From an uncultured bacterium (lineage in GTDB: Bacteria; Planctomycetota; UBA1135; GCA-002686595), in the NCBI GenBank assembly GCA_943787795.1, contig CALSNU010000002.1:160001-224000 (forward strand): a stretch of DNA of 64,000 nt, written 5' to 3'. Position numbers and translations under genes: made by a program. The notes under the pieces are model-generated. The model saw only the letters and a program-made list of their open reading frames with translations. It made no database searches and was not told the DNA's origin. Of this stretch, positions 23,775-45,541 are shown piece after piece. Every line of letters begins with the position of its first letter. Positions within the stretch are counted from its first letter, which is position 1.

Positions 23775-24755
23775 TCACTGGAACATGATCTCGTAGCCGT
23801 CCGTGAAGTTGCTCGTCGCCGTCCCGGCCACAGCGTCCCGGTACCACGCCTGGAAGCTCCAGGTCTCGCCCGCCGACACGGCGACGAACCCGTTGGGTTG
23901 CGGGATCTGGGTGTTGTCAGCGGCGAGGGAGATCTCACCCGTCGCACCCGAGTTCTGGATCTGGCCAGCGCCGACGTAGCGGCCGATCGATCCGCCAAGG
24001 CAGAGGTTGCCCTGGCTCCCCCCCGGGTTTGCAACCGCACCCTGGGTCAGGGACGTCAGAAAGAAGCCGAACGAGTTCAACGGGAGGTCGCTCGCCTCGA
24101 GGACCAGGTCGTTGCTCGCCACAGAGTTGGAGCCTGAGGCGCTCATGGTCCCGGCGACTCCGGTCGAGTTCACCACCGCCGTGCAGTAGTTGGTCCCGAC
24201 GCTCGGCGCCGACCCCGTGCAGAACGATCCGTTCCAGACTCGCGGGGTGAACACGCTCCCCCCGACGAAGGGGGCCGAGCAGCTCGACCCCAGCTCGATG
24301 GTCATGTTGCCGTCCGTGAAGAGCTGGTTGGCTCCGGTGCCGTTGGTGTAGGGGTTGCCTCCAACGGTGTAGACGATGGCGACGCCCGCGACACCGCCAG
24401 GCATGAAGTCAAAGGGTGCGACGAGCGGCACAGGCGTCGGAGTGCCCTGGCCCGCGGCCAGCGCGGTGCCGTCTCCCTGGGCGACCAGGGTCCATCCCGT
24501 CGGGTCCTGCTCGAAGCCGGCATAGCTCCCTGATCGGGTCCACACCTCCAGGTTGACCGGCGACCCGGCCGCCACGTTGAAGTTGGCCTCGAGGCTCACA
24601 ACCGTGGTCGGGTTGAGCACCGTGACATCCATGTAGTTGGCCCAGCCGGTGGCACCGCCGTTGTTACTGACGAAGGTGGTCTCGAGGCAGGTCTGGGCGC
24701 TGGACGCTGCGCTGCAAAGCACAGCGGCGGAGATCGAGAGGAGCAGTCGCTTCAT
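23775..24755 (-). CDS. Secreted protein with shared C-terminal NSTG/FQAWYRD domain (copy A)
   Basis: Sec signal MKRLLLSISAAVLCSAASSAQ; C-terminal ~145 aa homologous to 28454 and 39784 genes. Confidence 0.9.
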   Translation of the reverse strand: MKRLLLSISAAVLCSAASSAQTCLETTFVSNNGGATGWANYMDVTVLNPTTVVSLEANFNVAAGSPVNLEVWTRSGSYAGFEQDPTGWTLVAQGDGTALAAGQGTPTPVPLVAPFDFMPGGVAGVAIVYTVGGNPYTNGTGANQLFTDGNMTIELGSSCSAPFVGGSVFTPRVWNGSFCTGSAPSVGTNYCTAVVNSTGVAGTMSASGSNSVASNDLVLEASDLPLNSFGFFLTSLTQGAVANPGGSQGNLCLGGSIGRYVGAGQIQNSGATGEISLAADNTQIPQPNGFVAVSAGETWSFQAWYRDAVAGTATSNFTDGYEIMFQ

Positions 24756-25086
24756 GATTGGATAGACAGGTTGGGGTAAGGAAGACTCGTTTCACCACTC
24801 TAGGTACTTCCCACCACCTCGCTCGCTGGGCGGGCAACGAACCCGCAGCGATCGCTGCTCAGGCTCCTCAGAGCAGCTAACGCGGCGTGCTCACTGCCGC
24901 TGACCGGGGTCTTGATTCGGAGCACCCGCTGCCGGCTGAGTCCCCCGCTCGGGCCCTTGAAGGCCTTTGCATTCCGTTCCTGGCGAATTCCGGACGGGGG
25001 GGTACCGAGCCCCATGAGACTCGGAGTCCTGGGCGGTCGGATCCGTCACCTCGGTCGCGGGAGCAGCGTCATGACCCCGCGATCCG

Positions 25087-25710
25087 ATGACCCGAGCCCA
25101 GCAATTCCAGGACCACCTCTTCACGGAGCTTGCGTTCCGCGCGCGACACCTCAGCCCCCTGCGCCGGCTGTATCGCCAGATGCTCTCCGACTGCCTGGGA
25201 GAGCAGTTCTCGTTTCATGCCTCCCCAGGCCTGCACGCCAACATGACCTGGCACTACGCGACGAGCCCGCCCACGCTCGCCGCGTTTCATCGGTGCCTGA
25301 CGGACAGCGATCTCGGCGAGAGCCTCTCCATCGTCCACGGTGATTCAAGACTCCTCGCGGCCTGCTTTGTCGTCGTCGAGGGCGACACCCCTGTCCTCGA
25401 CTATCACGTCGACTACGGACAGGCCGAGATCCCTGCGGGCGTCACGGGGACCATGCTGACTCCCCTCATCGCCTTCGAACCGCCGTTTGGCCACCTCGAC
25501 TGCCGAGACGGCACGCGCGACTTCGAGTACCGCTACAAGGTCGGCGACGCGATCCTCTTCGACGGCAAGTTCGAACACCGATCACAGGCAGCTGGATCCG
25601 TCGCCAATCAGGCGCGGGTCCTGGTCTCCTGGAGCATCGCGACCGAGGACACCCGGTACAGCTTTGCCATCAAGCGGGTCATCGACAGTCAGATGCCCCC
25701 CCTCGACTGA
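25087..25710 (+). CDS. Hypothetical protein, possible 2OG-Fe(II) dioxygenase fold
   Basis: YHVD, TMLTPL, YKVGDAILFDGKFEHRS, RVLVSW. Confidence 0.6.
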   Translation: MTRAQQFQDHLFTELAFRARHLSPLRRLYRQMLSDCLGEQFSFHASPGLHANMTWHYATSPPTLAAFHRCLTDSDLGESLSIVHGDSRLLAACFVVVEGDTPVLDYHVDYGQAEIPAGVTGTMLTPLIAFEPPFGHLDCRDGTRDFEYRYKVGDAILFDGKFEHRSQAAGSVANQARVLVSWSIATEDTRYSFAIKRVIDSQMPPLD

Positions 25711-25807
25711 TCCTGAATCGGCGGCCGCCGCGGCCAGGCGCCGCTCCGATGGGGCCTCCCTCCGCAAAACGAGACCAGCCCCTCGAGCGCGGCGAGAGCC
25801 GCGCCCA

Positions 25808-25840
25808 GAGAGGACGCGGAGAGGACGCGGAGAGGACGCG
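25808..25840. repeat. 11-bp perfect tandem repeat x3 (GAGAGGACGCG)
   Basis: Read directly; between convergent genes. Confidence 0.9.
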
Positions 25841-25872
25841 CCCGCGCAATGAATCATCCCCCGTCCCCTCGC

Positions 25873-28305
25873 TCAGAGCGTCCGCCGCGCGCGTACGCGG
25901 CCGCTACGATCTCGAAGAAGAATGGTCTCGCCGATGGCGAGGTTGCCGTCGAAGGGTCCCACGACGAAGTGCCCCTCACCGCCCGTTGGCGCCACGGCGC
26001 GGCTGCGGAAGTCACCCGGGCTCGCGCTGATGAAGACGCGGCCCCCCGCCTCCACCACCGTGCCCGGGGGCAGCGTCATCTCCACGCCACCCTCCACGCG
26101 ATAGCCCGAGAGGTCCGTCGACCAAGGGGCGTCGTTGGTGATCTCGATGAACTCCTCGTCGTTGTTCCCCGACACCGGTGAGGCATCGAAGGCCGTGATC
26201 CGAAGGCGCGTCCGGCCTGACTCGGGCCCAGGAACAAGGCCCCCGTTGGCCTCGAGCTGCGACCCGTAGAGGTGAAGCCGTCGGTTGGCCACGTAGTCGG
26301 TGAGCAGCCGATCCTTGGCCTGCTGGAAGTTCCTGGGTGTTCCCCAGGTGGGCACCCCCCAGCGGGCCTCATCCAAGGCGACGTCCGCGGCCATCAGCGC
26401 GTAGGCCTCGTTGACCAGATCCTCGAGGTAGCGATCGGCGGCGGGGGTCCCCGGCTCCTGCAGGAGGTCGTCGCAGACCGTCCGCAGCCGGCGAACGTAC
26501 ATCTCCCGCAGGCGCGGGCTCTGGTAGATCCGATTGATCAACCGGTTCCAGAAGTTGTCCGAGGTGCGGTGCGCGCTGTCCCCGAACAACACGTGGCTGT
26601 ACTGAGGGTGGTTGTACGTGATCCGGTCGTTCAGGACCCCGCCCGACGGGTTGTAGTTACGGCCCCAGGTCAGGTCCTTGTCCCAAGGGATGAACTGCCA
26701 CTCGCCGTCCCCGTCCGAGTCCCTGTACAGGAAGTGATTCTTGTGGAGGTGATCGTTCTCGTGGATCAACCAGCACCCGACCAGGTAGCTGATCACCCGC
26801 GGCACATCGAGCACGTCAAAGAGGTAGTCCTCGATCCCCGCACCCCCCTGAACCACCGTCGAGACAAACGCCGTGAGGTCCGCGTTGTTCTCGTTGGTGC
26901 GGGTCACCTTCTCGACGCTGGAGGTCCCGCTGGTGAACGGGTTGTACATCTTGTACAGAGCCCCGTCCGGGTCCTCTCCCACACGCTCCAGGAAGAACCG
27001 GTCCAGCTCCTCCACGAAGGTCTGGACGGAGAAGAACTCGCCGTTCTGCTGGAGGCGCACCGGGAACGACTTCGAGACCAGCGCGCCCACCTCCTCGTAC
27101 ATGCCGTAGCCCAGGTATTGCCGCAGGTGAGCCTTGTCGGCCCAGTGAGTGTTGAGGTTGGCCTCGTCGATCGGCGCATCGAAGATGGCCAGCTCCGGGC
27201 GGTCGTCCGGGTTGAAGTCAAACTTGTAGCTCTTGCGCGGATACCCCGCCGAGCTCTGCCCGCGCCGGTTCACCTTGACGTTGTCGTAGAACTCGCCCTC
27301 GATCCAGACGGAGCAACGCGTCCCGTTGCCCGTGTTGGCGGCCCCGGGGTTCTGCACAAACCACTCCCAGACGTCCAGCGGGCTCGCCGCATGGCTGGGG
27401 TCCGCGACGACCGTCCCGAACCACTCGGGCGAGCCAAGCGGCTCGAGGAAGAGCGGTAGCGCGGTCGAGCTGATCCCGTCCGCCACCGTGACGCGGTAGC
27501 GGACCATGTCCCCGGGCCCACTCACGCCGGCGGGGATCACGCCCGTGTACACACCGTCGCCAGCCACGAGGTCGGGGGCCACGCCGCCATCGGTCATCGG
27601 CGCTGTCTGGACCCCGCCGTACATGACGCGGTAGTCCAGGTCCACGATGGGCGCCGAGGAGGTCGTCGTCGGCGCATGCACCGACACGACGAGGTCCTCT
27701 TGGTCAGTGGGTTGCTGGGGCGTGTGGGTGACACCCCAGACCGGCGGCGCGCCGACCGAGTTGGCGCCGCCCGGAGTCGGTGCGGTGAAGAGTCGCTCCA
27801 CGGCGAGCGGGCCGGGGTTGAAGGACAGCCCGTAGGAGACGTCCTCCTCCTGGGGTGGGTACTCCGGGGCGTACTCCGTGACGATCGAGCCTGTCGAGTT
27901 CACCAGGGCGAGGTACTCCCCGCCGCCAGAGAGCTTGAAGTTGGTATGCAGGGGGCCGGCAGGGTCCCGGCGATCCTTGTCCGAGGCGAAGACCACGAGG
28001 TACCCCCCGTCCGGGAGCACGGTCCCGGGCCCAAAGACCCAGAGGGCGAGATCGCCTGAGTCGTCGGTCAGCGCCCAGCCAGACAGGTCCACCGCACCGG
28101 CCCCGGGGACGTTGTGGATCTCGATCCAGTCCGGCCGGTCACCATCCTCGTCCTCGAGCCCGCCGTCGTTGCGGGCGAGAAACTCGGTGAGGGCAGGGCC
28201 CGCTCCGAGCGCGGCGCCAGACGATTGGCTGAAGGCCAGAGCCTGGTCGGAGAAGAACGAGACGGTCAGGAGGCCGACGGCGAGGAGCGTTTGGATGAGG
28301 CGCAT
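25873..28305 (-). CDS. Secreted CotH-kinase-family protein with N- and C-terminal lamin-tail domains
   Basis: TEFLARN...DWIEIHN, HTNFKLSGGGEYLAL, RGQSS...RKSYK, DHLHKNHFLYRD, IPWDKDLTWG, EFIEITN. Confidence 0.88.
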   Translation of the reverse strand: MRLIQTLLAVGLLTVSFFSDQALAFSQSSGAALGAGPALTEFLARNDGGLEDEDGDRPDWIEIHNVPGAGAVDLSGWALTDDSGDLALWVFGPGTVLPDGGYLVVFASDKDRRDPAGPLHTNFKLSGGGEYLALVNSTGSIVTEYAPEYPPQEEDVSYGLSFNPGPLAVERLFTAPTPGGANSVGAPPVWGVTHTPQQPTDQEDLVVSVHAPTTTSSAPIVDLDYRVMYGGVQTAPMTDGGVAPDLVAGDGVYTGVIPAGVSGPGDMVRYRVTVADGISSTALPLFLEPLGSPEWFGTVVADPSHAASPLDVWEWFVQNPGAANTGNGTRCSVWIEGEFYDNVKVNRRGQSSAGYPRKSYKFDFNPDDRPELAIFDAPIDEANLNTHWADKAHLRQYLGYGMYEEVGALVSKSFPVRLQQNGEFFSVQTFVEELDRFFLERVGEDPDGALYKMYNPFTSGTSSVEKVTRTNENNADLTAFVSTVVQGGAGIEDYLFDVLDVPRVISYLVGCWLIHENDHLHKNHFLYRDSDGDGEWQFIPWDKDLTWGRNYNPSGGVLNDRITYNHPQYSHVLFGDSAHRTSDNFWNRLINRIYQSPRLREMYVRRLRTVCDDLLQEPGTPAADRYLEDLVNEAYALMAADVALDEARWGVPTWGTPRNFQQAKDRLLTDYVANRRLHLYGSQLEANGGLVPGPESGRTRLRITAFDASPVSGNNDEEFIEITNDAPWSTDLSGYRVEGGVEMTLPPGTVVEAGGRVFISASPGDFRSRAVAPTGGEGHFVVGPFDGNLAIGETILLRDRSGRVRARRTL

Positions 28306-28453
28306 GGTGGTTGATCCAGGGATGTCTCGATCATGGCACGGCCAGGTCGAGAGCGCCGCGCTGAAGGCCACTTCCGAGCGAGAATGAGAGGTCCCGTGCT
28401 ACCTTGGGAACAAGCCGAGCGGACGTCTTCGATCCCCCCCCGCCGCTGATCCC

Positions 28454-29533
28454 ATGCGCGCCTCCACCAACATCATCCTGTGGGCCTGCGGCCTCTTTGT
28501 CGCACCCTCGGCCACCGCACAAGTCGGGCTCAACCTCGACTTTGGACCGTCCGACGTGCACGGCACCCCGGGCCCAAGCGAGGGCGCCGCGGCCCAGGTC
28601 GGTGGCGCGTGGAACGGCGTCGACACGGACGCCCTCTCCGGCGGCACGTTCCCGGTCACGATCGCAGGGCTCGTGGACACGAGCGGCGTACCGACCCCTG
28701 TCACCCTGGTCATCAACGACCTCGGCACCGGGCTCCAGAGCTTCCTCTACGACGACCCCGCCACCGTCGGAGGCGACGACGCGCTCCTCGACGACCTCGC
28801 CTTCTTCGGGGGCGCGGCCACCCTCGAGATCCGGGGGCTCGCCGCGGGCCAGTACGACATCTTCACCTACGCCGCCGTCCCGAGCGGCGCCGACCACCGG
28901 ACCCGCGTCCGGATCCCGAGCTCGTCCGACCCTATTCAGACGGTGGGCGGCGACTTCTCTGGCGGGTACCAGGCTGGGGTGACTCACGCCCGGCACGCGG
29001 TCAACGTCGCGCCTGGCAGCGCCGTCACCCTCCAGCTCAACGTCGCGGCAGAGTTCATGTCACTCAACGGGATCCAGGTGGTTCCGTTCGGTGCCACGGG
29101 CGACCTCGGCGCCCGCTACTGCACACCGGGGGCGACCAACTCCACGGGCTTCCCCGGCGAGGTCTCTGCCTTCGGGAGCCCCCGCCGCGTCGACAACGAC
29201 GTCGCGCTCACCGCGAGTTCGCTCCCGACCAACACCTTCGGCTTCTTTCTGACCAGCCAGGATCAGGGCTTCACCGCCACCCCTGGCGGGAGCCTGGGCA
29301 ACCTGTGCCTGGGAGGCGCCATCGGGCGCTACGTCGGAGCGGGTCAGATCCTCAACTCCGGCACCAACGGATCCTTCACCCTCCCCCTCGATCTCGCGGC
29401 CACGCCGACACCCACCGGGCTCGTGTCCATCACCGCGGGCGAGGCCTGGAACTTCCAGGCCTGGTATCGGGACTCGCTCCTCGGCATCCCGCTCTCCAAC
29501 CTGACGGACGCGCTGGTCCTCACTCTGCTCTGA
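28454..29533 (+). CDS. Secreted protein with shared C-terminal NSTG/FQAWYRD domain (copy B)
   Basis: Sec signal ending ATAQ; YC...NSTG...GFFLTS...NLCLGGAIGRYVG...WNFQAWYRD...SNLTD. Confidence 0.9.
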   Translation: MRASTNIILWACGLFVAPSATAQVGLNLDFGPSDVHGTPGPSEGAAAQVGGAWNGVDTDALSGGTFPVTIAGLVDTSGVPTPVTLVINDLGTGLQSFLYDDPATVGGDDALLDDLAFFGGAATLEIRGLAAGQYDIFTYAAVPSGADHRTRVRIPSSSDPIQTVGGDFSGGYQAGVTHARHAVNVAPGSAVTLQLNVAAEFMSLNGIQVVPFGATGDLGARYCTPGATNSTGFPGEVSAFGSPRRVDNDVALTASSLPTNTFGFFLTSQDQGFTATPGGSLGNLCLGGAIGRYVGAGQILNSGTNGSFTLPLDLAATPTPTGLVSITAGEAWNFQAWYRDSLLGIPLSNLTDALVLTLL

Positions 29534-29542
29534 CCCCTCCCC

Positions 29543-29675
29543 CTGAGGACAGATCGACACTGAGGACAGATCGACCCTGGGGCCAGATCGATCCTGCGGC
29601 CAGATCGATCCTGCGGCCAGATCGATCCTGAGACGAGGTCAACCCTGAGAGGTCAACCCTGAGGCGAGGCCGACC
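29543..29675. repeat. 17-bp tandem repeat x~8 with drifting units (CTGAGGACAGATCGACA to CTGCGGCCAGATCGATC to CTGAGACGAGGTCAACC)
   Basis: Read directly; between convergent genes, no spacers. Confidence 0.9.
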
Positions 29676-29693
29676 CCGGACGAGCAGCTGGCT

Positions 29694-30779
29694 CTAGCGC
29701 GAGGCCGACTCGAGCGGGAGCTCGGCCGCCCGGGGAACCGTCAGGATCCCCTGGGTCGCCAGGGCGCAGCGGATCACGACCGCGTCGTTCTCCGCCTGCT
29801 GCAGCTCGACCAGCTCGGTCTGCAGGCCCACGTTGGCAAGCTCGATGTACCCCTGCAGGAGGCGGCCCGCCCCCGCGGTGGTGGGCTGGACCGCGACGGG
29901 ATCCCCCGAAAGGGTCGTGGCGGCGTAGCCGTTGCTCTCGCCCTTCAGGTCCGAGGGGTTGCGGAAGACGTGCAGGCGGATCAGGCCGATCTGGTTCTGG
30001 ATGTTCCCCTCATCGAGGGAGTACACCTCACCGTCGGCGGAGATCGAGATGCCCTGGCTGTCCGGGGGGATCTGGACCTGGTCGCTGAGCAGGTAGCCCT
30101 CGGCGGTCACGAGGCGACCGTTGGCGTCCTGCCGGAACGTGCCGTTCCGGGTGTAGCGCTGCTCGCCGCTGGGGAGCTCGATCTCGAAGAAGCCAGCCCC
30201 CTCAACCCCGAGGTCGAGGGAGTTCCCCGTTAGCTTGAGGGCGCCCTGGGTCACGTCCAGCTGCACACCAGCGGACCGCGGGTGACGGACGTCGTTCATG
30301 GTGTCCGCGCTGGAGATCGGCAGCGGCCTGCGCCGCTTGTAGCCAGGGACCCCGAGGTTCGCGATGTTCTCGCAGTGCAGAGCGCACTGCTCATCGAGCG
30401 CAGCCAGCGCTCCCTTGAGTGACTCGACGCCAGCGCCCACCTCGACCCCATGGCTGGCCTCCACCGGCTGTGCGGTGGCCCCCGCCAGCGTGGCCAGGCG
30501 AAGCTGTTCCACCGTGCGGCTCAGCCCCTCGATTCGAGCGGCCAGCTGGATACCCCCGGCCGAGTCGACCTGCGAGGCCAGGCTCGAGCGCTCCAGGAGC
30601 GCCGCCCTGGCCTCTGCCTCCACAAGACGCATCTCGAGCTCCTGGATCTGCTGCTGCAGCTCGGCCCTCGAGGGTTCGCCCGTGTCCACCGGGTGCGCGG
30701 TCGTCGAGGGGCTGCTGGACCTCCCCTGGCAAGAGGCCAGCAGGAGAACGGCGGTGAGGGCAGTGGCACGCTGGATCAT
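29694..30779 (-). CDS. Lipoprotein with coiled coil fused to an FlgG/FlgF-like flagellar rod domain
   Basis: Lipobox LLASC; ENIANLGVPGYKR, QGALKLTGNSLDLGVEGAGFF, YTRNGTF...GRLVTAEGY, LQGYIELANV. Confidence 0.85.
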   Translation of the reverse strand: MIQRATALTAVLLLASCQGRSSSPSTTAHPVDTGEPSRAELQQQIQELEMRLVEAEARAALLERSSLASQVDSAGGIQLAARIEGLSRTVEQLRLATLAGATAQPVEASHGVEVGAGVESLKGALAALDEQCALHCENIANLGVPGYKRRRPLPISSADTMNDVRHPRSAGVQLDVTQGALKLTGNSLDLGVEGAGFFEIELPSGEQRYTRNGTFRQDANGRLVTAEGYLLSDQVQIPPDSQGISISADGEVYSLDEGNIQNQIGLIRLHVFRNPSDLKGESNGYAATTLSGDPVAVQPTTAGAGRLLQGYIELANVGLQTELVELQQAENDAVVIRCALATQGILTVPRAAELPLESASR

Positions 30780-30826
30780 GGTGAGTTCCTGGCTGGGGCG
30801 GGCGGCGTTGGCCGGGCGTGCCTGGA

Positions 30827-30854
30827 TCATCGGCCGGGTCCCTCCATTCCTTGA
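30827..30854 (-). promoter_or_regulatory. Sigma28 (FliA/SigD)-type promoter
   Basis: TCAAG-N15-GCCGATGA, about 48 nt upstream of ATG 30779. Confidence 0.55.
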
Positions 30855-30995
30855 CGCCTGCCCGCGGCTCGATGGGGTTCAACCGAGGCCCGGTGCCCCA
30901 GGCCCCTGGGCCGGGACGACCCAGGGCGAGGCTCGCCCCGACGGGGCTGGATGGAATCCCCTGCGGGTCCACATTCCGGACATAGACTGGAACCC

Positions 30996-33900
30996 ATGAG
31001 CGCCCCCCTCGCCTTCATGGTCCTCGCCCTCACCGCATGGCCCTCCGGCTCCGCCGGACCTGAAGACCGAGTCGAGGACAAGGCGCCCGTGGACTTCGCG
31101 CGTGAGGTGCGGCCGATCCTCTCGGACAAGTGCTTCCAGTGCCACGGCCCCGACCCCGAGACGCGCGAGGCGGGCCTGCGCGTGGACTCCCTCGAGGGGA
31201 TCACCGCGGAGCTCAGCACCGGCGGGCACGCCGTCGTCGCGGGGGACGTCGAGGACAGCGAACTGCTCTACCGGATCGCCCCGGAATTCGAGGACGACCT
31301 GATGCCGCCCGAACGCTCGGGCAAGTCCCTCTCGGAGTCCGAACGCTCGGTGCTGCGGCGCTGGATCGAGGAGGGCGCGCCCTGGGATGAGCACTGGTCC
31401 TTCCAGCGCCCGGTCAAGCCGACGGTCGCGCAGGGTGGAGAAGACGGCGACGCCATCGACGCGCTGCTCGACGGGCCCATGGCCGCCGCCGGGCTCGCGT
31501 TCCAGCCCGAGGCCGACGCCGCGACGCTCCAGCGTCGGGTGAGCCTGGATCTCACCGGCCTCCCCCCGGCCCCGGAGGAGTCGGCCGCGTTCCACGCCGA
31601 CGTGGCGCTCCGCGGGCTCGACGCCGCCTACCGCGCCGAGGTGAAGCGGCTGATGGCCTCCGAGCGCTACGGGGTGCACATGGCGCGGACCTGGCTCGAC
31701 GCCGCCCGCTACGCCGACACCCACGGCCTCCACCTGGACAACCGGCGGTCCATGTGGCCGTACCGGGACTGGGTCGTGCGGGCGCTGAACGACAACAAGC
31801 CCTTCGACGAGTTTGTCATCGAGCAGCTCGCCGGCGACCTGCTGCCGAACGCGACCCTGGACCAGCAGGTCGCCTCGGGCTTCAACCGGTGCAACCCCAC
31901 CAGCGCCGAGGGCGGGATGATCGCGCAGGAGTACCTGTCGATCTACGCCAAGGACCGCGCCGACACCACGGCCAAGGTCTTCCTGGGTCTGACGCTCGAG
32001 TGCGCCCAGTGCCACGACCACAAGTTCGACCCGATCAGCCAGCGCGACTACTACGCGATGTACGGGTTCTTCAACTCCATGACCGAGGAGGCGACGGACC
32101 GGAACATCGAGAACCCGGTCCCCTTCCTGCGCGTCCCGCTCCCCGAGCAGGCGGGCAGGCTCGAGGAGATCTCCGCCGCGACCTTGGCGCTGACAGAGGA
32201 GCTGGACCGACCCAACCCGGAGCTCGACGAGCGCGAGCGGCGCTGGATCGAGAGGACCTCCCAGGAGGTCCTGGGCCGCTGGAAGACCGTCATCCCCGAG
32301 CGGGTCGCGGCGACCGAGGGCGTGGAGCTCACCGTCGAACCGGAGAGCGGCGTCGTGGTCGCGGGCGGAGCGAACCCCCACAACACCACCTACACCATCG
32401 ACGCCTGGGTGCCGCCAGGACAGATCGAGGGGCTGCGGCTCGACGCCCTGGTCCCCGAGGGCCGGGCCCTGCCCGGCCGCGCGAGCAACGACAACTTCGT
32501 GCTCACCTCCGTGGAGGTCCTCGCCGCCCCCGCCGACCGGCCCGAGGAGCTCCAGCCGATCGGCCTCGGCGCCGCCGTCGCCACCCACAGCCAGGATCGC
32601 TTCCCCATCACCGGCGTCCTTGACCCCTCCTCCGCGAGCGGCTGGGCGGGACTCGGGAAGACCGGAGACCGGTCGGCGCTGCTGGTCCCCACGCGCGGCT
32701 TCGGGTGGGCCGAGGGCACGGAGCTCCGGGTCAAGCTGGTGTACGCCTCCGTCCACTCCCAGCACGGCCTCGCGCGCTTCCGCCTCGCCGTCCGGCGCTC
32801 CGACGACCTCGAGCCGGCCCTGCGCACGGGCACCTGGCACCGCGCCCACTTCCCCGCCTCCGCGGCCGCGGGTCTCTACGACGAGCCACACCCGCCCCAG
32901 GACCAGATCGCCGGAGGCGTGGACCTCTTCCGCGAGGCGGCCCCCGGCGTCCCGTGGACGGCCCACCCCGAGTACTCCGAGGGTCGCCGCCACCTGTTCG
33001 AGAGCGGCCTCGGCGTGCACTTCCTGGTACAGCGCATCGAGGCCCGTGAGGCCCGCAGGATCGAGCTGCTCCTGGGCAGCGACGACGGCGTTGAGGCCTG
33101 GCTGAACGGCGAGCTGGTGCACTCCAACCGCGTGGCCCGCGGGGTCAACATCGATCAGGACCGGGTCCCGCTCTCCCTCGCGGCCGGCGACAACGAGCTC
33201 GTGCTGAAGGTGGTGAACACCGGCGGCGCGGGGGGTTTCTCCTGGCGGCTCGTGGACGGCGGAAGCGCGGACGGCCTGCCCCCGGCCATCGAGCTCGCCA
33301 TGCAGACCCCGCTCGCCGAACACACCCAGGCGACCCGCGACCTGACGCGGGTCTTCTGGCGCCGCAGCCACGCCGAGGAGTGGGCCGCGGCCTTCGACGA
33401 GCGAGAGGCCCTGGCCGCCGAACGAGCCACCATCGAGGGGGCGCTGCCCAGCACCATGGTCTCCGAGGAGCGCTCCGAGCCCCGGCCCGCCCACGTCCTG
33501 ATGCGCGGAGCCTATGACAAGCTCGGGGAGGTGGTTGAGCCCGCGACCCCCTCGGCGCTCCCGCCCCTCCCCGCGGACGCACCGCGCAACCGCCTCGGGC
33601 TCGCGCGGTGGATCGTCTCCGGCGACAACCCGCTCACCGCCCGGGTCTGGGTCAACCGCGCCTGGCAACACTTCTTCGGGGCCGGCATCGTCGCGACCCC
33701 CGACGACTTCGGGAACCAGGGCAAGTGGCCGAGCCACCCCGAGCTGCTGGACTGGCTGGCCGTGACCTTCGTGGAGAGCGGCTGGGACATGAAGGCCATG
33801 CACGAGCGGTTGGTGCTCAGCCGCGCCTACCGCCAGGACTCCAACGTCCGGCCCAACGAGCTCGAGGTCGACCCCGACAACCGCCTGCTGGCCCGGAGCT

Positions 33901-34538
33901 CGCGCTTCCGCCTCGACGCGGAGGTCCTCCGAGACCAGGCCCTGCACGTGGCCGGGCTCCTCGACGAGACCATGGGCGGCCCGGGCGTCCGGCCCTACCA
34001 GCCCGAGGGGATCTGGTTCGCCGTGGGTTACAGCGGCAGCAACACGGTGCGCTACGCCCAGGGTCCGAAGGAGGACCTGCACCGCCGGTCGCTCTACACC
34101 TTCTGGAAGCGCACCGCGCCGCCCCCCAACCTGACCACCTTCGACGCGCCCATGCGCGACGCTTGCACCGTCCGCAGGGAGCGCACGAACACGCCGCTCC
34201 AGGCGCTGGTCATGCTGAACGACCCCACCTACGTGGAGGCGGCCCGCTTCATCGCGGCCCGCGTCCTGCGGGAGGCCGGACCGTCGCACCTGGAGCGCGC
34301 GGGGCACCTGTTCCAGCTGGTCGCCAGCCGGACGCCCACCGGTGAGGAGGCGGACCGTATCGCCCGGCTCGTCACCGCGCTCTCCGCGGACTTCGAGGCG
34401 GACCCCCTCGACGCCGTGGAGCTGGTCGCGACCGGGGACCTGGAGGTCCCGGCGGACGTGGACACCATCGAGCTCGCGACCTGGACGCTCACGGCCAGCG
34501 CCATCCTGAACCTGGACGAGGTCCTGACGAGGAACTGA
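30996..34538 (+). CDS. Planctomycete cytochrome c + DUF1549/DUF1553 domain protein
   Basis: [73 protein letters not shown]. Confidence 0.95.
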
Positions 34539-36016
34539 TGCAGCACCCCCTCCACGACTCCCCCATCGCCGAGCGCGCCGCGCACCTCACCCGCCGCCAG
34601 TTCTTCGGCAGGACCGCCACGGGCATCGGCACCGCCGCCCTGGCCTCGGTCCTCGGGCCGCGCGCCCTCGCGGCGCCGGCCATGGGCGACCGGACCGGCG
34701 GCCTCCCGGGTGTCCCCCACTTCGCCCCCAAGGCCAAGCGGGTCATCTACCTGTGCATGTCCGGCGCCCCCAGCCAGTTCGAGACCTTCGACTGGAAGCC
34801 GCGCCTGCGGGACATGTTCGACCAGGAGCTCCCTGACTCCATCCGCAACGGCCAGCGCATCACCACCATGACCTCCGGTCAGACGCGCTTCCCCATCGCT
34901 CCCTCGAAGTTCGACTTCGCCCGCCACGGCGAGGCGGGGACCGAGGTCTGCGAGACGCTCCCCTGGACGGCGAAGATGGTGGACGACCTGTGCGTCATGC
35001 GCAGCGTCCACACCGACGCCATCAACCACGACCCCGCCATCACGTTCATGCAGACGGGGTCCGAGCAGCCCGGCCGGCCGAGCTTCGGCGCCTGGCTCTC
35101 CTACGGGCTCGGCTCCATGAACCGAGACCTGCCGAGCTTCGTGGTCATGACGCCGCGCTGGAAGGGACGACGCGAGGCCCAGGCCCTCTACCAGCGCCTG
35201 TGGGGCTCAGGCTTCCTCCCCTCCGAACACCAGGGTGTCGCCCTGCGCGCAGGCGGCGACCCGGTGCTGTACCTGAACGATCCGGACGGCGTCGACCGCA
35301 AGAAGCGGCGCGAGATGCTCGACCTCGTGTCCGAGCTGAACTCGAAGCGAGCCGACGAGGTCGGCGACCCGGAGATCCGGGCGCGCATCGAGCAGTACGA
35401 GATGGCCTTCCGTATGCAGTCGGCGGTGCCCGAGCTCACCGATCTCTCCGGCGAGCCGCAGTCGGTGCTGGACCTCTATGGCCCCGACGCCAACGTGCCG
35501 GGCACCTTCGGCGCATCGTGCCTCCTGGCGCGCCGCCTGGTGGAGCGCGACGTGCGCTTCGTCCAGATCTACCACCGGGGCTGGGACCAGCACGGCAACC
35601 TGCCCAATGACCTGGGCAACAACTGCCGGGACATCGACCAGCCCGCCTACGGGCTGATCCAGGACCTCAAGAACCGCGGGCTCCTCGAGGACACCCTGGT
35701 CATCTGGGGCGGCGAGTTCGGCCGGACCACCTACTGCCAGGGGGCCCTCTCCAAGGAGAACTACGGGCGGGACCATCACCCGCGCTGCTTCTCCATGTGG
35801 ATGGCCGGAGCCGGCGTGAAGACGGGACAGACCTACGGCACCACGGACGATTTCTCGTACAACATCGTCGAGGACCCCCTGAGCGTGTACGACCTCAACG
35901 CCACGATCCTCCAGCTGCTGGGCATCCAGCACGACCGCCTCACCTTCCGCCACGCTGGCCGGGACCACCGGCTGACCGACGTGCACGGCGAGGTCGTCCA
36001 GGCCCTGCTGGCCTGA
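34538..36016 (+). CDS. DUF1501 (sulfatase-like) Tat-exported protein
   Basis: TRRQFF Tat motif, [38 protein letters not shown]. Confidence 0.95.
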
Positions 36017-36030
36017 CCCCAGTCTCGAAG

Positions 36031-37206
36031 ATGCCCCGACCCAACCCCCGCCGTGCCGCTGGCGCGACCCTCCTCCTCCGCACCTCGCCGCTCTGGATTC
36101 CGCTGGTGGTGGGCGCCTGTAGCACCGGCGCCGACCTCGTCCAGGCGGAACAGGCCGCCGAGCAAGCGGAGATCCGGCAGGCCGGGCTCGACGCGCTGGA
36201 GGCGGCGGCCGCGGCAGGCGACCTTGCCTCGCAGATGCGGCTGGCCTCCATGTACTACGACGGGCGGACCGTCCCCCGGGATCGCGGGAGGGCCGCCGTC
36301 TGGTACCGGGCCGCCGCCGACCAGGGGCTGGCCGAGGCCTACTACTCCCTCGGGATCATCCTGGAGGACGGCGACGGCCTCCCCCAGGACGCCGCGGCCG
36401 CGGTGGCCGCGTACCGCGTGGCCGCGGAGGCGGGGGTCGCTGAAGCTCAGACCAACCTTGGGCTGATGGCGCTCCGCGGAGAGGGGATGGAGCCCGACCT
36501 GAAGGTGGCGTACCTCTGGCTCTCACGAGCCGCTGAGCTCGGCGTCGCCAGGGCTCAGTTCATGCTCGGGTCCATGATCGCCAACGGCAGGGGCGCGAGC
36601 CCCGACACCGCGCTCGCGGTCCAGTGGTACGAGCGCGCCGCCAGGCAGGGCCTCGGTCCCGCCCAGGAGGTCCTCGCCGCCGCGCTCCTCACGGGAGACG
36701 GAGTGCAAAGAGACCCGAGCCTCGCGGCTCGGTGGCTCGAGCTCGCTGCGGACCAGGGATCAAGCAGAGCACAGGAGCGGCTCGGCCTGCTCCTCGTCGC
36801 AGGGGCCGATGGGATCCCCAAGGACGCTCCCGCCGGCGCCGCCTGGCTGCTCAAGGCCGCCGAGGGGGGCACTCCCACGAGCCAGTTCAACCTCGGATTG
36901 CTCTACATCCGTGGCGACGGCGTGGAGGCCAACGATCGCGAGGCCTTCCGATGGTTCTCCGCCGCGGCAGAACAGGGGCTGAGTGAAGCCCAGACGCGGG
37001 TGGGCGCCATGGCCGAGGCCGGCCGCGGCGTTCGCAAGAACGTTGTGGTCGCCGCGAGCTGGTACATGGTCGCCGGCCGGGAGGGGAACCTCGGCGCCCT
37101 GCGCCGGCTGGAAGCCCTCGACCAGAACCTGTCCGCGTCCCAGCGCCAGGCCGCCCAGGAGCGCGCCCTCGCCTGGGAGCAGGCGCGCGCCGGAACAGCC
37201 CGCTAG
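36031..37206 (+). CDS. Sel1-like repeat protein (probable lipoprotein)
   Basis: VVGAC; repeated AxxWYxxAAxQG.AEAQxxLG. Confidence 0.9.
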   Translation: MPRPNPRRAAGATLLLRTSPLWIPLVVGACSTGADLVQAEQAAEQAEIRQAGLDALEAAAAAGDLASQMRLASMYYDGRTVPRDRGRAAVWYRAAADQGLAEAYYSLGIILEDGDGLPQDAAAAVAAYRVAAEAGVAEAQTNLGLMALRGEGMEPDLKVAYLWLSRAAELGVARAQFMLGSMIANGRGASPDTALAVQWYERAARQGLGPAQEVLAAALLTGDGVQRDPSLAARWLELAADQGSSRAQERLGLLLVAGADGIPKDAPAGAAWLLKAAEGGTPTSQFNLGLLYIRGDGVEANDREAFRWFSAAAEQGLSEAQTRVGAMAEAGRGVRKNVVVAASWYMVAGREGNLGALRRLEALDQNLSASQRQAAQERALAWEQARAGTAR

Positions 37207-37329
37207 AGCCCTCGGGTGGTGGTGCAGCCCCGGCGCCCGGGCTCGAGACTGTCCTCGATGGAGACCGGCCCGCCATCTTGATGTTCTGGGCCTCAGGGCG
37301 CGTCCCTGGTTCAGGTCGATAGCAGCCCC

Positions 37330-38379
37330 ATGGCTCGCACGACGCTCCCCCTGCTCACCACTCTCTTCCTCTCGGCCTGCGCCACGACACAGTCCGGGCT
37401 CCGGGCGTACCACGGGGGGGACTACTCGGCCGCCATCGGGGCCTGGACGCCCCTCGCCGAGGCAGGTGAGCCCGCCGCTCAGTTCTTCCTGGGGACGATG
37501 TACGACGATGGGATCGGCGTCGAAGAGGACAAGCTCGAGGCGCTCGAGTGGTACCTGTTGGCGGCGGGCAGCGGCCACCCCAAGGCCCAGACCAACCTGG
37601 GCCTCCTGTACTTCCACGGTAACGGCGTCGCGCGCTCCCACGAGCGCGCGCTGCGGTGGTTCCAGCGCGCGGCAGAGCAGGAGTTCCCGGAGGCGGAGAG
37701 CAACCTGGGCGTGCACTTCCTGCTCGGCATCGGCGTCGACCCCGACGCCGAAGAGGCCCACAGGTGGTTCACTCGAGCCGCCGCGCATGGCCACGCCAAA
37801 GCCCAGCGGATCCTCGGGACCATGTTCGAGGAGGGGACCGGATGCGAGACCGACGACCGCGCCGCAGCGAGGTGGTACGAAGAGTCTGCGCGCAGCGGCG
37901 AGTCCGACGCCATGCTCCGGCTGGGCGTCATGCACCTGGAGGCGCGCGGGGTCCCGCTCGACGAGGGCCGCGCCGCTGAGCTCCTGACGGGAGCCGCCAA
38001 GGCGGGACAGGTGGACGCACAGGTGCTGATCGGGTGGATGCACTTCACCGGCCGAGGCGTCCCCAGGAACCCCGCGAAGGCGTCCGCATGGCTCGCCGCC
38101 GCCGCCCATCAGGGCGACCGCGGGGCTCAGGCGAGCTTCGGGCGGGCTTGCATTGAGCAGGCCACGACCGATCAGGCGCTGACCGAGGGGGTTCAGTGGA
38201 TCCAGCTCGCGGCGACCGAAGGCCTCGCTCACGCACAGTACGACCTCGCCCTGCTCTACCTGCGTGGGACCGGCGTGGAACGCTCCAGGGAGCAGGCCCT
38301 CCGGTGGATGGAGCGTGCCGCCGCCGCGGGTCACGCCGGGGCCATCTCGCGGCTCGCGGCGCTGAGTGACGGGGACTGA
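37330..38379 (+). CDS. Sel1-like repeat lipoprotein
   Basis: LSAC lipobox; AQFFLGTMYDDGIGV, AQTNLGLLY, AQYDLALLY. Confidence 0.9.
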   Translation: MARTTLPLLTTLFLSACATTQSGLRAYHGGDYSAAIGAWTPLAEAGEPAAQFFLGTMYDDGIGVEEDKLEALEWYLLAAGSGHPKAQTNLGLLYFHGNGVARSHERALRWFQRAAEQEFPEAESNLGVHFLLGIGVDPDAEEAHRWFTRAAAHGHAKAQRILGTMFEEGTGCETDDRAAARWYEESARSGESDAMLRLGVMHLEARGVPLDEGRAAELLTGAAKAGQVDAQVLIGWMHFTGRGVPRNPAKASAWLAAAAHQGDRGAQASFGRACIEQATTDQALTEGVQWIQLAATEGLAHAQYDLALLYLRGTGVERSREQALRWMERAAAAGHAGAISRLAALSDGD

Positions 38380-38397
38380 CTCACCGCACGCCACCCC

Positions 38398-39654: not shown

Positions 39655-39707
39655 GGTTCGTGGGAGCGTGTTGGGCTGCGCCGCGCTGGCACATTGAAGG
39701 ACGGGGC

Positions 39708-39772
39708 GGGGCCCCCCCGCCGAGATTCGGCGAGGGGGCCTCCTGAGACCGCGCCGCCCGGACGGCGCGGCG
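39708..39772 (-). terminator. Two GC stem-loops 3' of the 39784 gene
   Basis: GGCCCCCCCGCCGA-GAT-TCGGCGAGGGGGCC and CCGCGCCG-CCCGGA-CGGCGCGG. Confidence 0.5.
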
Positions 39773-39783
39773 ATCCAGTTCGA

Positions 39784-41724
39784 TCAGTTGAAGGTGACCG
39801 AGAGACCGTTGGTGAAGTTGGAGACCGCGCCGGCGGTGCCGACGTCCCGGTACCAGGCCTGGAAGTTCCAGCTCTCGCCGGCCACCGCGGACACGAAGCC
39901 CGTGGGCTGGGGGATCTGATTCAGGTCCAGGGCCAGGGAAATGATCCCGTTGGAACCGGCGTTCTGAATCTGACCCGGGCCCACGTACCGCCCGATGCTC
40001 CCGAGCAGCAGAAGGTTGCCCTCGGAGCCGCCCGGGTTCGGGACGAAGCTCTGCGTCTGGCTGGTGAGGAAGAACGCCGCCGAGCTCTGCGGGAGGCTCT
40101 GGGCGTGGATCGTCACGTCATTGTCCGAGGCCGTCAGTGAACCGGAGGCCGACATGCGCGCCACCGACCCAGTGGAGTTCGCGTTGGCCTCGCCGAAGCC
40201 CTCACCGATGCAGTCGCCGCCGGTGAAGCCGAAGGCGTTGGCCGCCGACCATCCGCAGAGCCAGTTGTTGGCCGTATCCGGCGAGAAGGCCCCACGGTAG
40301 GGCGCGAACTCATAGAACCCATCGGCGGGCGCCGAGGCGGTGGTGCTCGCCGCGTCGTTGATCGGCGTCGGATCGAGGCTCACCACGGGGATCATGATCT
40401 TCCCGCCGCGGCTCACCGGCGTGGAGCGGGTGATGCTGGCGATGGGCGAGCTGCTGGCGAGGACGTTGCTGTTGGTCGGCGCGAAGACGCCGCGGGCGTT
40501 GGCCTCGTCGTAGGCGTTCCCCGCGAGGTTACGGAAGAAGACCGTGTCCGTGATCTCGATCAGCTTGCCGCTGGGGTCCTGCGACCGGTAGAAGTCTGCG
40601 GGGTCGACGGGCGCATTGATGGTCGAGAACGTGCTCGCGGGGGTGTTCCAGCGGTCCTCGAAGGAGAGCGTCCCTCCAGCGCCATAGCCCGACGCGCCGT
40701 CACCGTCGTCGCCGTCCGCCCGGACGACCTTCTCGCCGCAGTCCATGATGATGGAGTTGCGGATCTGCACGTTAGCGTTGTCCCGCCAGGCGGTGGCGCC
40801 GTCGCCGTCTACCGGCTGACCGATGACGGTCATGTTGTAGAGCGAGGCAGTGGTGACGGGCTGATAGAAGGAGTCCTCGGCGCCGTCCATCTCGATGCAG
40901 TTGTCGCCGACACCGGAGCCCTGGTTGGCGTTGAGGCTGTAGCCCTGGACGATGAGGCCGAACTGGGCCTTGCCGCGCCAGCCCTGGTCGATGTCGAGGC
41001 TGTCGTCGCCGATGTTCCAGATGCTGAAGTGCTTCAGGTTGACCGTGCCGCCCCAGATCTCGATGCCGTCGTCGACGTTGTTCATGATCTCGACGAAGTC
41101 GATGTCCGTGCCGCGTCCAATGCCGCCAAGGGAGAGGCCGTTGAGCTCGTTGTTGAGACCGATGACCCTGCCGCCGTAGCGAAGAGAGACGTAGTTCAGC
41201 GTGCCCGAGTCGTCGTCGTCGTTGCCGCCGCCGTACTGGGCGATCGTGCTGCCAGCCGGAGGCTGGAGGCCCTCCATGTTCCCGTAGTTCGAGCCCTTGG
41301 GCTCAGGCGAGTTCGAGGGGATCGCGTTCTCGGAGATGTAGGCGTCACCCATGATGGTGATGTTGCCCCACTCGTTGGCGGACTCACGCCAGGTGCCGGT
41401 CTTGGGGTCACCGCCGACCCACGTCGCGACGTCGGCCTTGGAGGTGAAGATGACGGGGTTGCCCGACTCGCCGAGGACGAAGAGCTGCGCGCCCTTCGCC
41501 ACCGCGAGCGAGCCGCCGACCCCGGTGTCGCTGGCGATCACCGTGCCAGCCTGAATGGTCAACGTGGCGCCGGGCTCCACGTAGACCTGGGTCTGGATGT
41601 TGTACGTGTTGTTGGCGGTCCAGGTCGTCGAGGTCGTGATGTTGGACGCGACGATGATCTCCGCAGCGCTCGACGAGGAGGCCGCAAGCGCGCCAAGAGC
41701 CAGGGTCGAAAGAGCTTTCTTCAC
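39784..41724 (-). CDS. Secreted beta-helix-like, TBDR-associated protein with shared C-terminal domain (copy C)
   Basis: GTG start VKKALSTLALGALAA; TWTANNTY, LTIQAGT, GGGNDDDDSGTLNYVSLRYGG, NELNGLSLGGIG, DDGIEIWGGTVN; C-terminal NSTG...WNFQAWYRD...SNFTN. Confidence 0.88.
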   Translation of the reverse strand: MKKALSTLALGALAASSSSAAEIIVASNITTSTTWTANNTYNIQTQVYVEPGATLTIQAGTVIASDTGVGGSLAVAKGAQLFVLGESGNPVIFTSKADVATWVGGDPKTGTWRESANEWGNITIMGDAYISENAIPSNSPEPKGSNYGNMEGLQPPAGSTIAQYGGGNDDDDSGTLNYVSLRYGGRVIGLNNELNGLSLGGIGRGTDIDFVEIMNNVDDGIEIWGGTVNLKHFSIWNIGDDSLDIDQGWRGKAQFGLIVQGYSLNANQGSGVGDNCIEMDGAEDSFYQPVTTASLYNMTVIGQPVDGDGATAWRDNANVQIRNSIIMDCGEKVVRADGDDGDGASGYGAGGTLSFEDRWNTPASTFSTINAPVDPADFYRSQDPSGKLIEITDTVFFRNLAGNAYDEANARGVFAPTNSNVLASSSPIASITRSTPVSRGGKIMIPVVSLDPTPINDAASTTASAPADGFYEFAPYRGAFSPDTANNWLCGWSAANAFGFTGGDCIGEGFGEANANSTGSVARMSASGSLTASDNDVTIHAQSLPQSSAAFFLTSQTQSFVPNPGGSEGNLLLLGSIGRYVGPGQIQNAGSNGIISLALDLNQIPQPTGFVSAVAGESWNFQAWYRDVGTAGAVSNFTNGLSVTFN

Positions 41725-44280: not shown

Positions 44281-44288
44281 GGGATCGT

Positions 44289-44708
44289 TCAGGCGCCCCC
44301 TTTGGTCGTCGCGATGTTCACGGTGACATTGTCGCCTGCCCGCTCGGCCTCGTCGATGACCCTGACCATCAGCCCCGCGCTCGCCTTGCGATCCGCCTGG
44401 ATGATGACGGGCATGGTGCTGTCCTCCTTGAGCTTGCGCTTGACCGTGGCCTGAACGCGGTTGACCCCGATGTTCTCCTTGTCGAAGACCACCTCACCGC
44501 TCTCGGTCACGGCGATCAGGATGCTGTTGCTCGGCAGGTCCTTGGACGAGGCAGCCTGCGGCTTGTCCACCTCGACGCCGGTCTCCTCCACGAAGACGGT
44601 CGTGACGATGAAGAAGATGAGGAGAATGAAGACACAGTCAATCAGCGGCGACATGTCGATCGTCGTCTCGGCCTCGTCGTCGCTTCCGGCGTCCTTGAAT
44701 CGTCCCAT
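44289..44708 (-). CDS. exbD: Biopolymer transport protein ExbD
   Basis: IDMSPLIDCVFILLIFFIVTT, VIIQAD, VRVIDEA. Confidence 0.95.
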   Translation of the reverse strand: MGRFKDAGSDDEAETTIDMSPLIDCVFILLIFFIVTTVFVEETGVEVDKPQAASSKDLPSNSILIAVTESGEVVFDKENIGVNRVQATVKRKLKEDSTMPVIIQADRKASAGLMVRVIDEAERAGDNVTVNIATTKGGA

Positions 44709-45527: not shown

Positions 45528-45541
45528 CTCGGTTGTGCTCC

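Follow-up and report, generated by a model that had tools for sequence, protein, structure and literature searches.

Three unrelated, presumably secreted proteins encoded in the window (the whole 64,000-nucleotide stretch of DNA that was analysed) end in a common domain, and our results support its assignment to a large family that is restricted to one lineage and found at the ends of exported proteins. Judged by sequence, the results also support that the domain is none of the catalytic or carbohydrate-binding modules already catalogued. The domain may act as an uncleaved envelope anchor, probably on the outer face of the outer membrane and via a putative lineage-specific partner, a reading to which we give about an even chance. 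Anchoring is better supported than a cleaved signal for crossing the outer membrane because components of the T9SS and PEP-CTERM systems were not found and because a cytochrome c family carries the domain at its N-terminus.

The window genes and their terminal domain

The initial annotation had described the same ~145-residue C-terminal domain on three unrelated proteins with signal peptides (Table 1), and our analysis agrees. Copies A, B and C share 54, 56 and 53% pairwise identity over the last ~145 residues, all of the motifs listed for them are present, and the three passengers gave no mutual match at E<1e-5. The signal peptides were judged by eye and with a crude hydrophobicity heuristic. 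Neither passenger A nor passenger B matched a Pfam family, and passenger A is related to parts of four other domain-bearing proteins in the genome. The plasmid collection contained no match for the terminal domain, passenger A or passenger B. Metatranscriptome coverage was rejected as evidence of expression, since the four runs come from one study, are even over the window and yield contigs of up to 71 kb, and thus look like DNA.

Table 1. Positions of the three genes, their parts and the gene C context within the window
Feature	Position	Strand	Composition or basis
Gene A, 326 aa	23775..24755	-	ORF real; signal peptide, ~160-aa passenger, terminal domain
Gene A predicted Sec signal peptide (~residues 1-20)	24696..24755	-	Sequence and heuristic
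Terminal domain copy A, 145 aa, Cys10 and Cys71	23778..24212	-	Alignment, AlphaFold2 model
Gene B, 359 aa	28454..29533	+	ORF real; signal peptide (~residues 1-22), ~190-aa passenger, terminal domain
Terminal domain copy B, both Cys present	29093..29530	+	Alignment
Gene C, 646 aa	39784..41724	-	ORF real; signal peptide (~residues 1-20), ~480-aa conserved passenger, terminal domain
Terminal domain copy C, both Cys lost	39787..40221	-	Alignment
Gene C context: TonB-dependent receptor, DUF3450, two ExbB, ExbD, TonB, TPR protein	41999..51017	-	Directly upstream, same strand

A disulfide had been suggested from the two cysteines of copies A and B and their absence from copy C. Among 97 aligned copies, 94 keep both cysteines, two have neither and one has a single cysteine, and this joint retention and loss fits a disulfide. 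It would be dispensable, because many relatives lack both residues. The last strand follows the pattern hydrophobic-x-hydrophobic-Thr-Phe-x with no conserved Lys, and the domain is acidic, with a mean net charge of -4.2.

The AlphaFold2 model of copy A (pLDDT 96.9) is an all-beta, Ig-like beta-sandwich that displays conserved aromatic and polar residues. Its fold matches include the Fn3 domain of PelI/Pel3 (Z 8.1), which we take to be type II secretion substrates, and residues 1004/1005-1156 of PorU, which matched both models (Z 7.6, rmsd 2.7, 99 aligned; Z 7.4, rmsd 3.0, 98 aligned) but were tied with many unrelated Ig folds, CBM56 among them (Z 7.1-7.2). According to the available text of PMC11285876, the PorU CTD comprises residues 1054-1158, which overlaps the matched region, and true T9SS CTDs match one another at Z 6-10. 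No T9SS CTD (PorU aside), cohesin or dockerin entry occurred among the top fold matches listed. Sequence searches of Pfam, NCBIfam and the PDB gave no match to the domain, and 66 members searched against Pfam at E<=10 matched no T9SS CTD, dockerin or CBM family. Nothing was found of what the initial annotation had named as evidence against its reading (a match to a characterised catalytic or carbohydrate-binding module, frequent internal or cytoplasmic occurrence, or rarity in the genome). In the ESM Atlas, all 30 of the nearest clusters lack a name, and CHRD clusters, at 0.80-0.82, lie below the level that would count as a lead.

Several other likenesses were considered. Entries for neocarzinostatin apoprotein were the top Foldseek rows (E ~0.01, TM 0.3-0.5), but there was no sequence match and the structural alignment ranked 47 (Z 6.8, rmsd 3.4, 103 aligned). 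Antibody light-chain matches (E>=0.009) reflect coincidental short Gly/Ser motifs, and ester-bond adhesin domains and NPC2/Der f 2 appeared as weak Foldseek rows only.

Number, position and cargo of the family

The large genomic family anticipated from the three window copies was found. The genome, in an assembly that is 85% complete, holds 104 copies at E<1e-5, and 102 of these end 0-2 residues before the stop, so the shared domain is not a chance likeness. With eight further divergent copies, domain genes total 110 of 3520 (~3%). The domain was also terminal in 148 of the 150 best library matches, none of which carried two copies, and in all 94 matches from 79 loci. Signal peptides are usual: the heuristic was passed by 83 of 102 domain genes vs 1095 of 3418 other genes, and once starts had been checked by eye, a signal-peptide-like start was present in 91 of the 92 intact ORFs of the family. 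A hydrophobicity scan predicted a transmembrane segment in only two of 102 domain proteins. The linker before the domain is Gly/Pro-rich and shows no conserved motif that could mark a cut site. The C-termini otherwise shared among 683 exported proteins are the ends of enzyme families, not tags.

The passengers are diverse, with 95 of them falling into 48 sequence clusters. Pfam matches were obtained for 45 of 96, mostly to extracellular types: M12B, M43, S8, M14, trypsin, endonuclease I, GH16, FG-GAP, lectin and eight GBD_T9SS_assoc. In addition, choice-of-anchor B was found above cut-off on two passengers and choice-of-anchor L on one. Possibly periplasmic cargo includes two Pfam-confirmed di-haem cytochrome c peroxidase-family proteins, an N-acetylmuramoyl-L-alanine amidase and a sulfatase. 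The domain is placed N-terminally in a conserved family of signal peptide, domain and cytochrome c-like region (six of eight loci) and likewise in the unrelated protein P0130. Such placement speaks against a C-terminal signal that must be cleaved and is expected of a binding module.

Across Planctomycetota, the domain is present in 64 of 301 genomes, and in Saltatorellus ferox, a cultured strain, its copy number is 150 or more. Its relatives in public data form 20,157 sequence clusters. A domain of this abundance, which marks ~3% of the genes here, has no Pfam or NCBIfam name, and a single profile would predict much of the surface proteome in a deep, mostly uncultured branch of the phylum. A dedicated translocon or receptor, if one exists, would constitute a new route of protein display.

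Tails of passenger C and the search for a partner

Passenger C is the one passenger for which the terminal slot was tested in depth, by a survey of tails in 89 full-length orthologues. The tail belongs to the terminal-domain family in 46 (29 by the own-genome profile alone), is dockerin-like by motif in 20, is of a short FYR type in nine and is Big_1 in four, with other tails or none in 10; in three of the 89 the tail is nearly absent, at 22-29 aa. Of 44 scanned tails, four scored above the cut-offs for Dockerin_1 and dockerin_GC. All three scanned Big_1 tails match the last ~110 positions of the model for Kustd1514 (E 1e-21 to 7e-17), the anammox S-layer protein which, in the available text of PMC5088730, forms the outermost layer.

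The initial annotation had expected passenger C to occur with a T9SS CTD in Bacteroidota. This was not confirmed, as none of the 44 scanned orthologue tails matches the T9SS CTD model and the three Bacteroidota homologues inspected (of five matches, a small sample) are lipoprotein-like and have no T9SS CTD. All three have a lipobox-like Cys and adjoin a TonB-dependent receptor. Passenger C homologues adjoin TonB-dependent transport genes, as does gene C, which adjoins a TonB-dependent receptor cluster and has no lipobox; the tail therefore takes the place that a lipid anchor has in the other lineage. Because one passenger comes with five or more different tails, or with a lipid anchor, depending on the lineage, the display of proteins on the planctomycete surface becomes a testable question.

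The T9SS sorting HMMs TIGR04183 (NCBIfam) and PF18962 (Pfam) gave no match at E<=1 to the three proteins or their domains. PorV was found neither in the own genome (85% complete) nor in five near-complete genomes, while the positive control matched. SprA, PorP/SprF and PorU (C25) had no match in the genomes searched, and the control genomes gave none either. Exosortase (PF09721) was not found in the own genome, 85% complete, with a positive control matched in one, and cohesin (PF00963) was found in none of five other domain-rich genomes, with positive controls matched in two. No scaffoldin-like exported protein with repeats of an uncharacterised module was found. Among genes up to two positions away from the 102 domain genes, no family stood out clearly; the highest counts were seven sulfatases (5.2 expected) and three HEAT-repeat-like proteins from two loci (0.4 expected). 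The genome does encode six secretins, one in a gsp-like cluster and two clustered with genes for TPR, ExbB and ExbD proteins. Of the proposed sorting or anchoring signal with an uncharacterised pathway, the part that stood is that the domain occupies the slot of known anchors and sorting signals; no dedicated pathway was found.

A Big_5 lipoprotein, used as a single query, was found in 17 of 30 domain-positive genomes (one of which, G024, was counted as a family member with no domain match of its own) and in none of 25 domain-negative genomes. With a profile, it was found in 62 of 301 genomes: 49 had both, 15 the domain only, 13 the lipoprotein only and 224 neither. It is only a candidate partner, because shared ancestry explains the co-occurrence.

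Competing readings and known systems

Copy number, position, cargo types, anchor swapping and distribution are the evidence directly in hand. As a mechanism for the anchor, we propose that proteins with signal-peptide-like starts would be exported by Sec and would fold in the periplasm, where co-loss of the cysteines points to a Cys10-Cys71 disulfide in this subfamily. They would cross the outer membrane, probably by the genome-encoded type II secretion system, and could then dock non-covalently through a conserved surface to an envelope protein or glycolipid, with Gln121, Asp126, Ser/Thr137, Asn/Asp138 and the Gly68 hairpin as candidate docking residues. Several observations count against the anchor: the cohesin, scaffoldin and neighbourhood searches found no partner, the PorU C-terminal region was matched, some cargo could be periplasmic, and three passenger C orthologues are nearly tailless. 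In addition, a secretion signal would also explain why the domain almost always ends at the last residue and occurs once per protein.

A folded secretion signal of the T9SS CTD kind, recognised by a translocon in the outer membrane (undescribed or type II) and possibly then cleaved, is possible although rather unlikely. The domain is nearly always last, occurs once and ends in a beta strand 0-2 residues from the stop, its cargo types match those of T9SS substrates, and the six secretins, including the gsp-like and TPR-ExbB-ExbD clusters, could serve such a route. The Ig-like fold, the Fn3 match of PelI/Pel3 and the PorU match, which falls inside the range among true CTDs in the available text of PMC11285876, are consistent with it, but numerous unrelated Ig folds match equally well. 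The failure to find PorV in the six genomes searched, the Gly/Pro-rich linker with no conserved cut-site motif, the conserved N-terminal placements, the acidic charge and the missing terminal Lys motif all argue against it. On a bolder and unlikely proposal, the domain would direct cargo to an undescribed system of the Saltatorellus clade for secretion and display at the outer membrane, a functional T9SS analogue built from other parts that handles 100 to several hundred proteins per genome. Candidate parts of such a system are the secretin-TPR-ExbB-ExbD cluster, which has no ATPase gene, or conserved large Big_5 lipoproteins beside prepilin peptidase.

Binding to an extracellular target (polysaccharide, particle or biofilm matrix) in the manner of a CBM, bringing enzymes to their substrate, seems improbable to us. 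The beta-sandwich with its aromatic and polar residues, the tied CBM56 match and a CBM49 match in copy C, one of the three proteins (E 0.18, 12.6 bits vs a cut-off of 23.4), would suit a binder, but the 48 passenger clusters address unrelated substrates (protein, DNA, peroxide, sulfate esters), tandem copies are missing from all 150 proteins, and the 66 members matched no CBM family. Periplasmic retention, with peptidoglycan and the inner face of the outer membrane as possible sites, would account for the haem c proteins, the amidase and the sulfatase. We consider it very improbable, as the slot elsewhere holds the tail of an S-layer protein that is outermost in the available text of PMC5088730, and the polymers that many cargo proteins would act on should not fit into the periplasm.

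Compared with known systems, the domain shares with PEP-CTERM, MYXO-CTERM and GlyGly-CTERM the use of one C-terminal tag on many diverse exported proteins. However, it is soluble and folded, whereas PEP-CTERM-type signals consist of a short motif, a transmembrane helix and a basic tail in the available text of 10.1101/2023.06.07.544157, and exosortase was not found in the own genome. With the T9SS CTD (type A, TIGR04183 / PF18962) it shares a signal peptide, variable cargo, a single terminal domain with a predicted Ig-like fold and the cargo families choice-of-anchor B and L, GBD_T9SS_assoc, M12B, M43 and S8. It differs in length (125-170 vs 67-108 aa) and in being acidic with no conserved last-strand Lys, which is CTD motif C-t. 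(both CTD features from the available text of PMC11285876), and also in its putative disulfide in this subfamily, its N-terminal position in some proteins and the failure to find PorV in six genomes. Type I (PF00404) and GC-type (NF041540) dockerins occupy the same slot on passenger C orthologues as one terminal copy, and M12B and M14 peptidases, which are among the cargo here, bear dockerins in the planctosome hypothesised for other planctomycetes, as outlined in the available text of PMC6461901. In contrast to the ~65-aa EF-hand pair of a dockerin, the planctomycete domain is an all-beta sandwich of 145 aa with no Ca-loop motif and no PF00404 or NF041540 match, and cohesin was not found in five domain-rich genomes. 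The C-terminal Big_1 domain of Kustd1514 (NF052345, positions ~1487-1596) has no sequence match to the planctomycete domain and is basic with a Lys-rich final strand, but it is likewise a terminal Ig-like domain that caps passenger C orthologues.

Size, position and distribution of the domain family

The initial annotation described one C-terminal domain shared by three unrelated secreted proteins in the window, and this description was borne out. The three ORFs were recovered at the positions it had assigned (Table). Each begins with a signal-peptide-like stretch, and the aligned C-terminal ~145 residues share 53-56% identity, whereas the passengers (the bodies upstream of the domain) have no mutual match at E<1e-5. 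A Pfam and NCBIfam search, suggested in the same annotation, returned no NCBIfam match and no significant Pfam match for genes A, B and C and their domains, and no Pfam match for 66 diverse members. A PDB sequence search gave no significant match, and the 30 nearest ESM Atlas clusters have no Pfam family in common.

Table. Features of the window and of its own genome (G000)
Feature	Position	Strand	Description
Gene A	23775-24755	-	ORF, 326 aa
Gene B	28454-29533	+	ORF, 359 aa
Gene C	39784-41724	-	ORF, 646 aa
Pilin genes	1653-4170	+	Three pilin- or pseudopilin-like genes (N_methyl, DUF7305)
CotH kinase	25873-28305	-	Exported; lamin-tail domains, choice-of-anchor X match; without the domain
Odd fusion	29694-30830	-	378-aa ORF; flagellar hook/rod FlgE/F/G D1 domain (E 1e-22) joined to a coiled-coil-like region and a lipoprotein-like start
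Genes between copies B and C	30996-38379	+	DUF1549/1553 + DUF1501 pair, then two exported Sel1-repeat proteins
TonB cluster	41999-51017	-	Receptor-DUF3450-ExbB-ExbB-ExbD-TonB-TPR, directly upstream of gene C
CotH-like gene	G000:C1:317971-320055		By eye like the window CotH kinase; continues into the domain across a frameshift
Domain genes split by frameshifts (n=8)	G000:C1:317486, C1:288822, C1:865013, C2:552350, C2:664740, C4:678416, C6:7518, C6:155450		
Cytochrome-like gene	G000:C6:243720-244898 (L021:10224-11051, -)		Order signal peptide, domain, cytochrome-like domain with one CxxCH; the last has no Pfam match
Big_5 genes	G000:C4:10768-19787 (L274)		Three large proteins of 624-1168 aa, two of them starting like lipoproteins; adjoin prepilin peptidase, OmpA-family and pilus genes
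Secretin cluster	G000:C5:96451-109817 (L277)		Pair of secretin genes around TPR, ExbB/MotA and two ExbD-like genes; no ATPase gene among neighbours listed

The expectation of a large genomic family also held. An iterated profile, run to convergence over all six-frame ORFs of the host genome (4.71 Mb, 85% complete), found 104 copies at E<1e-5, and a broader profile added eight divergent copies (E 3e-11 to 0.028), every one C-terminal. In all, the domain genes number 110, or 3.1% of the 3520 predicted genes. The suggested check on whether the domain is always C-terminal showed 102 of the 104 copies to lie 0-2 residues from the stop; the two exceptions are a remnant and an intact protein with the domain directly behind its signal peptide. 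By a crude heuristic, a signal peptide is predicted in 83 of 102 domain genes vs 1095 of 3418 other genes. A clear signal-like start was seen in 86 of the 104 copies. The other 18 comprise five that were resolved by an alternative start or a long n-region, eight with the N-terminus in another frame, four orphan fragments and one unresolved case. Thus, with the five resolved starts counted and the frame-split genes and orphan fragments set aside, 91 of 92 intact ORFs have a signal-like start. The split genes and orphan fragments may be assembly indels or decaying genes (pseudogenes).

A profile search of public data gave 20,157 clusters at E<=0.001 and 12,739 at 1e-10. The domain is terminal in 148 of the best 150 matches, none of which has two copies, and in 94 of 94 matches at 79 genome loci. 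The host genome lies in Planctomycetota, near Saltatorellus ferox, a placement to which the DUF1501/1549/1553 genes of the window contribute. In this phylum, a single-query search found the domain in 23 of 24 genomes of the same family and in none of the 16 from the order's other families. Matches of the own-genome profile in other families were weak, and all 20 inspected were also terminal domains. Using the broad profile, the domain was found in 64 of 301 genomes, and the families listed mostly had it in every genome or in none (8/8, 4/4, 3/3, 2/2, 6/6 and 6/6 vs 0/16, 0/17, 0/11 and 0/8). In Saltatorellus ferox the copies number at least 150 (all 150 that were scored, out of 399 candidates), and we infer that the positive families represent the wider Saltatorellus clade. 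The family is real, very large, terminal and unnamed. No description of such a domain was found in the literature searched, which takes in few subscription journals; supplementary orthogroup tables could include it. The available part of the Saltatorellota preprint (10.1101/817700) contains none of the terms secretion, C-terminal and signal peptide.

Cargo and exchange of tails

Pfam was used to scan 96 of the 104 passengers, leaving aside four beyond the fetched loci and four of insufficient length; 45 of the 96 had a match. The cargo includes peptidases (M12B, M43, S8, M14, trypsin, S9), endonuclease I, GH16, sulfatase, amidase, PQQ dehydrogenase, NIDO, lectin, FG-GAP and GBD_T9SS_assoc (n=8). 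The 95 passengers compared form 48 sequence clusters. Choice-of-anchor families, which owe their name to their occurrence with different anchors, were also present: B (twice) and L (once) above the cut-off, Q and J slightly under.

Homologues of passenger C, the conserved ~480-aa body of gene C, were found in 47 of the 301 genomes and at 80 metagenome loci. Among 89 homologues complete to the stop codon (46-70% identity, near-identical strains aside), the tails were the domain family in 46, dockerin-like in 20, short FYR-type in nine, Lys-ending Big_1 in four and other or none in 10. The count of 46 is from the broad profile, built partly from these tails; the own-genome profile alone gives 29. 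The Dockerin_1 and dockerin_GC cut-offs were passed by 4 of 44 scanned tails. All three Big_1 tails scanned match the end of the S-layer model of Kustd1514 (E 1e-21 to 7e-17), the outermost layer of Kuenenia according to the available part of its report (PMC5088730). Two tail types on passenger C matched neither Pfam nor NCBIfam in the cases scanned: a ~92-aa two-Cys tail (L172, L182, L185, L257) and a ~78-aa tail of the FYR type, ending in a FYR/FYK-like strand (L192, L199, L214, L218, L219, L225, L232, L236, L242). The latter is a type of tail known from Verrucomicrobiota.

The initial annotation named passenger C as occurring with a T9SS CTD in Bacteroidota, which was not confirmed: none of the 44 scanned tails matches that CTD. 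Distant homologues (28-36% identity) are found in 23 plasmid records, five of them Bacteroidota, and the three of these inspected, a small sample, each carry a lipobox-like Cys, lack a T9SS tail and adjoin a TonB-dependent receptor. Among the 39 orthologue loci that span 5 kb or more, 33 hold genes of the TonB-receptor-cluster type found beside gene C. These recurring neighbours suggest that a protein with passenger C needs to stay close to its receptor, which a lipid achieves in one phylum and a terminal domain likely achieves in another.

Predicted structure, export machinery and role of the domain

AlphaFold2 models of copy A (pLDDT 96.9) and of a Cys-less 125-aa relative (pLDDT 95.6) are all-beta. 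Foldseek gave no match at E<=0.001 for either. In fold comparison both match Ig-like sandwiches with no clear winner, the best Z of 8.3 and 9.0 being within the described background of the tool. The pair Cys10 and Cys71 is complete in 94 of 97 copies, absent from two and reduced to a single Cys in one. The most constant positions in the wider family are Gly27, Gly68, Gly92, Gly115, Gln121 (98%), Asp126 (88%), Ser/Thr137 (98%) and Asn/Asp138 (87%).

We favor, with moderate confidence, an uncleaved envelope anchor that would bind a lineage-specific partner. That the domain is instead a secretion signal seems doubtful. PorU residues 1004/1005-1156 align across the whole domain model (Z 7.6 and 7.4), and the PorU CTD comprises residues 1054-1158 in the part of the report available (PMC11285876). 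This alignment is compatible with a T9SS-CTD-like fold, yet unrelated proteins tie. N-terminal placements argue against a strictly C-terminal signal: the order signal peptide, domain, cytochrome-like domain occurs in 6 of the 8 loci where this cytochrome-like domain was seen (four genomes; one locus frameshifted) and in library protein P0148, and in P0130 the domain follows the signal peptide with a different partner. No conserved motif was found upstream of the domain, which also argues against such a signal. The cytochrome-like domain itself also terminates other large proteins (L309, L310). Binding of an external substrate is an improbable role for the domain, and tethering within the periplasm a slightly more improbable one.

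Neither PorV nor exosortase was found in the own genome (85% complete), with positive controls matched for both; SprA and peptidase C25 gave no match there in searches whose positive controls gave none either. In five near-complete domain-rich genomes PorV and cohesin were not found, with positive controls matched, and PorP/SprF and SprA_N gave no match, and neither did their positive controls. A search for a scaffoldin found none, and no enrichment was found in the neighbourhood of domain genes. Six secretins are encoded in the own genome. One belongs to a gsp-like type II cluster, one to a pilus-like cluster and one to a tad-like cluster; two flank TPR/ExbB/ExbD genes, and there is one other. 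The cluster with the flanking pair could be a proton-motive-force-driven secretin system; nothing was found on this arrangement in the literature searched. The Big_5 gene order is conserved across the order and beyond, and a Big_5 profile matches 62 of 301 Planctomycetota genomes, including 49 of the 64 with the domain, although related genomes are not independent counts.

The domain resembles both dockerin and the T9SS CTD in its position and its cargo, but it is a member of neither family.
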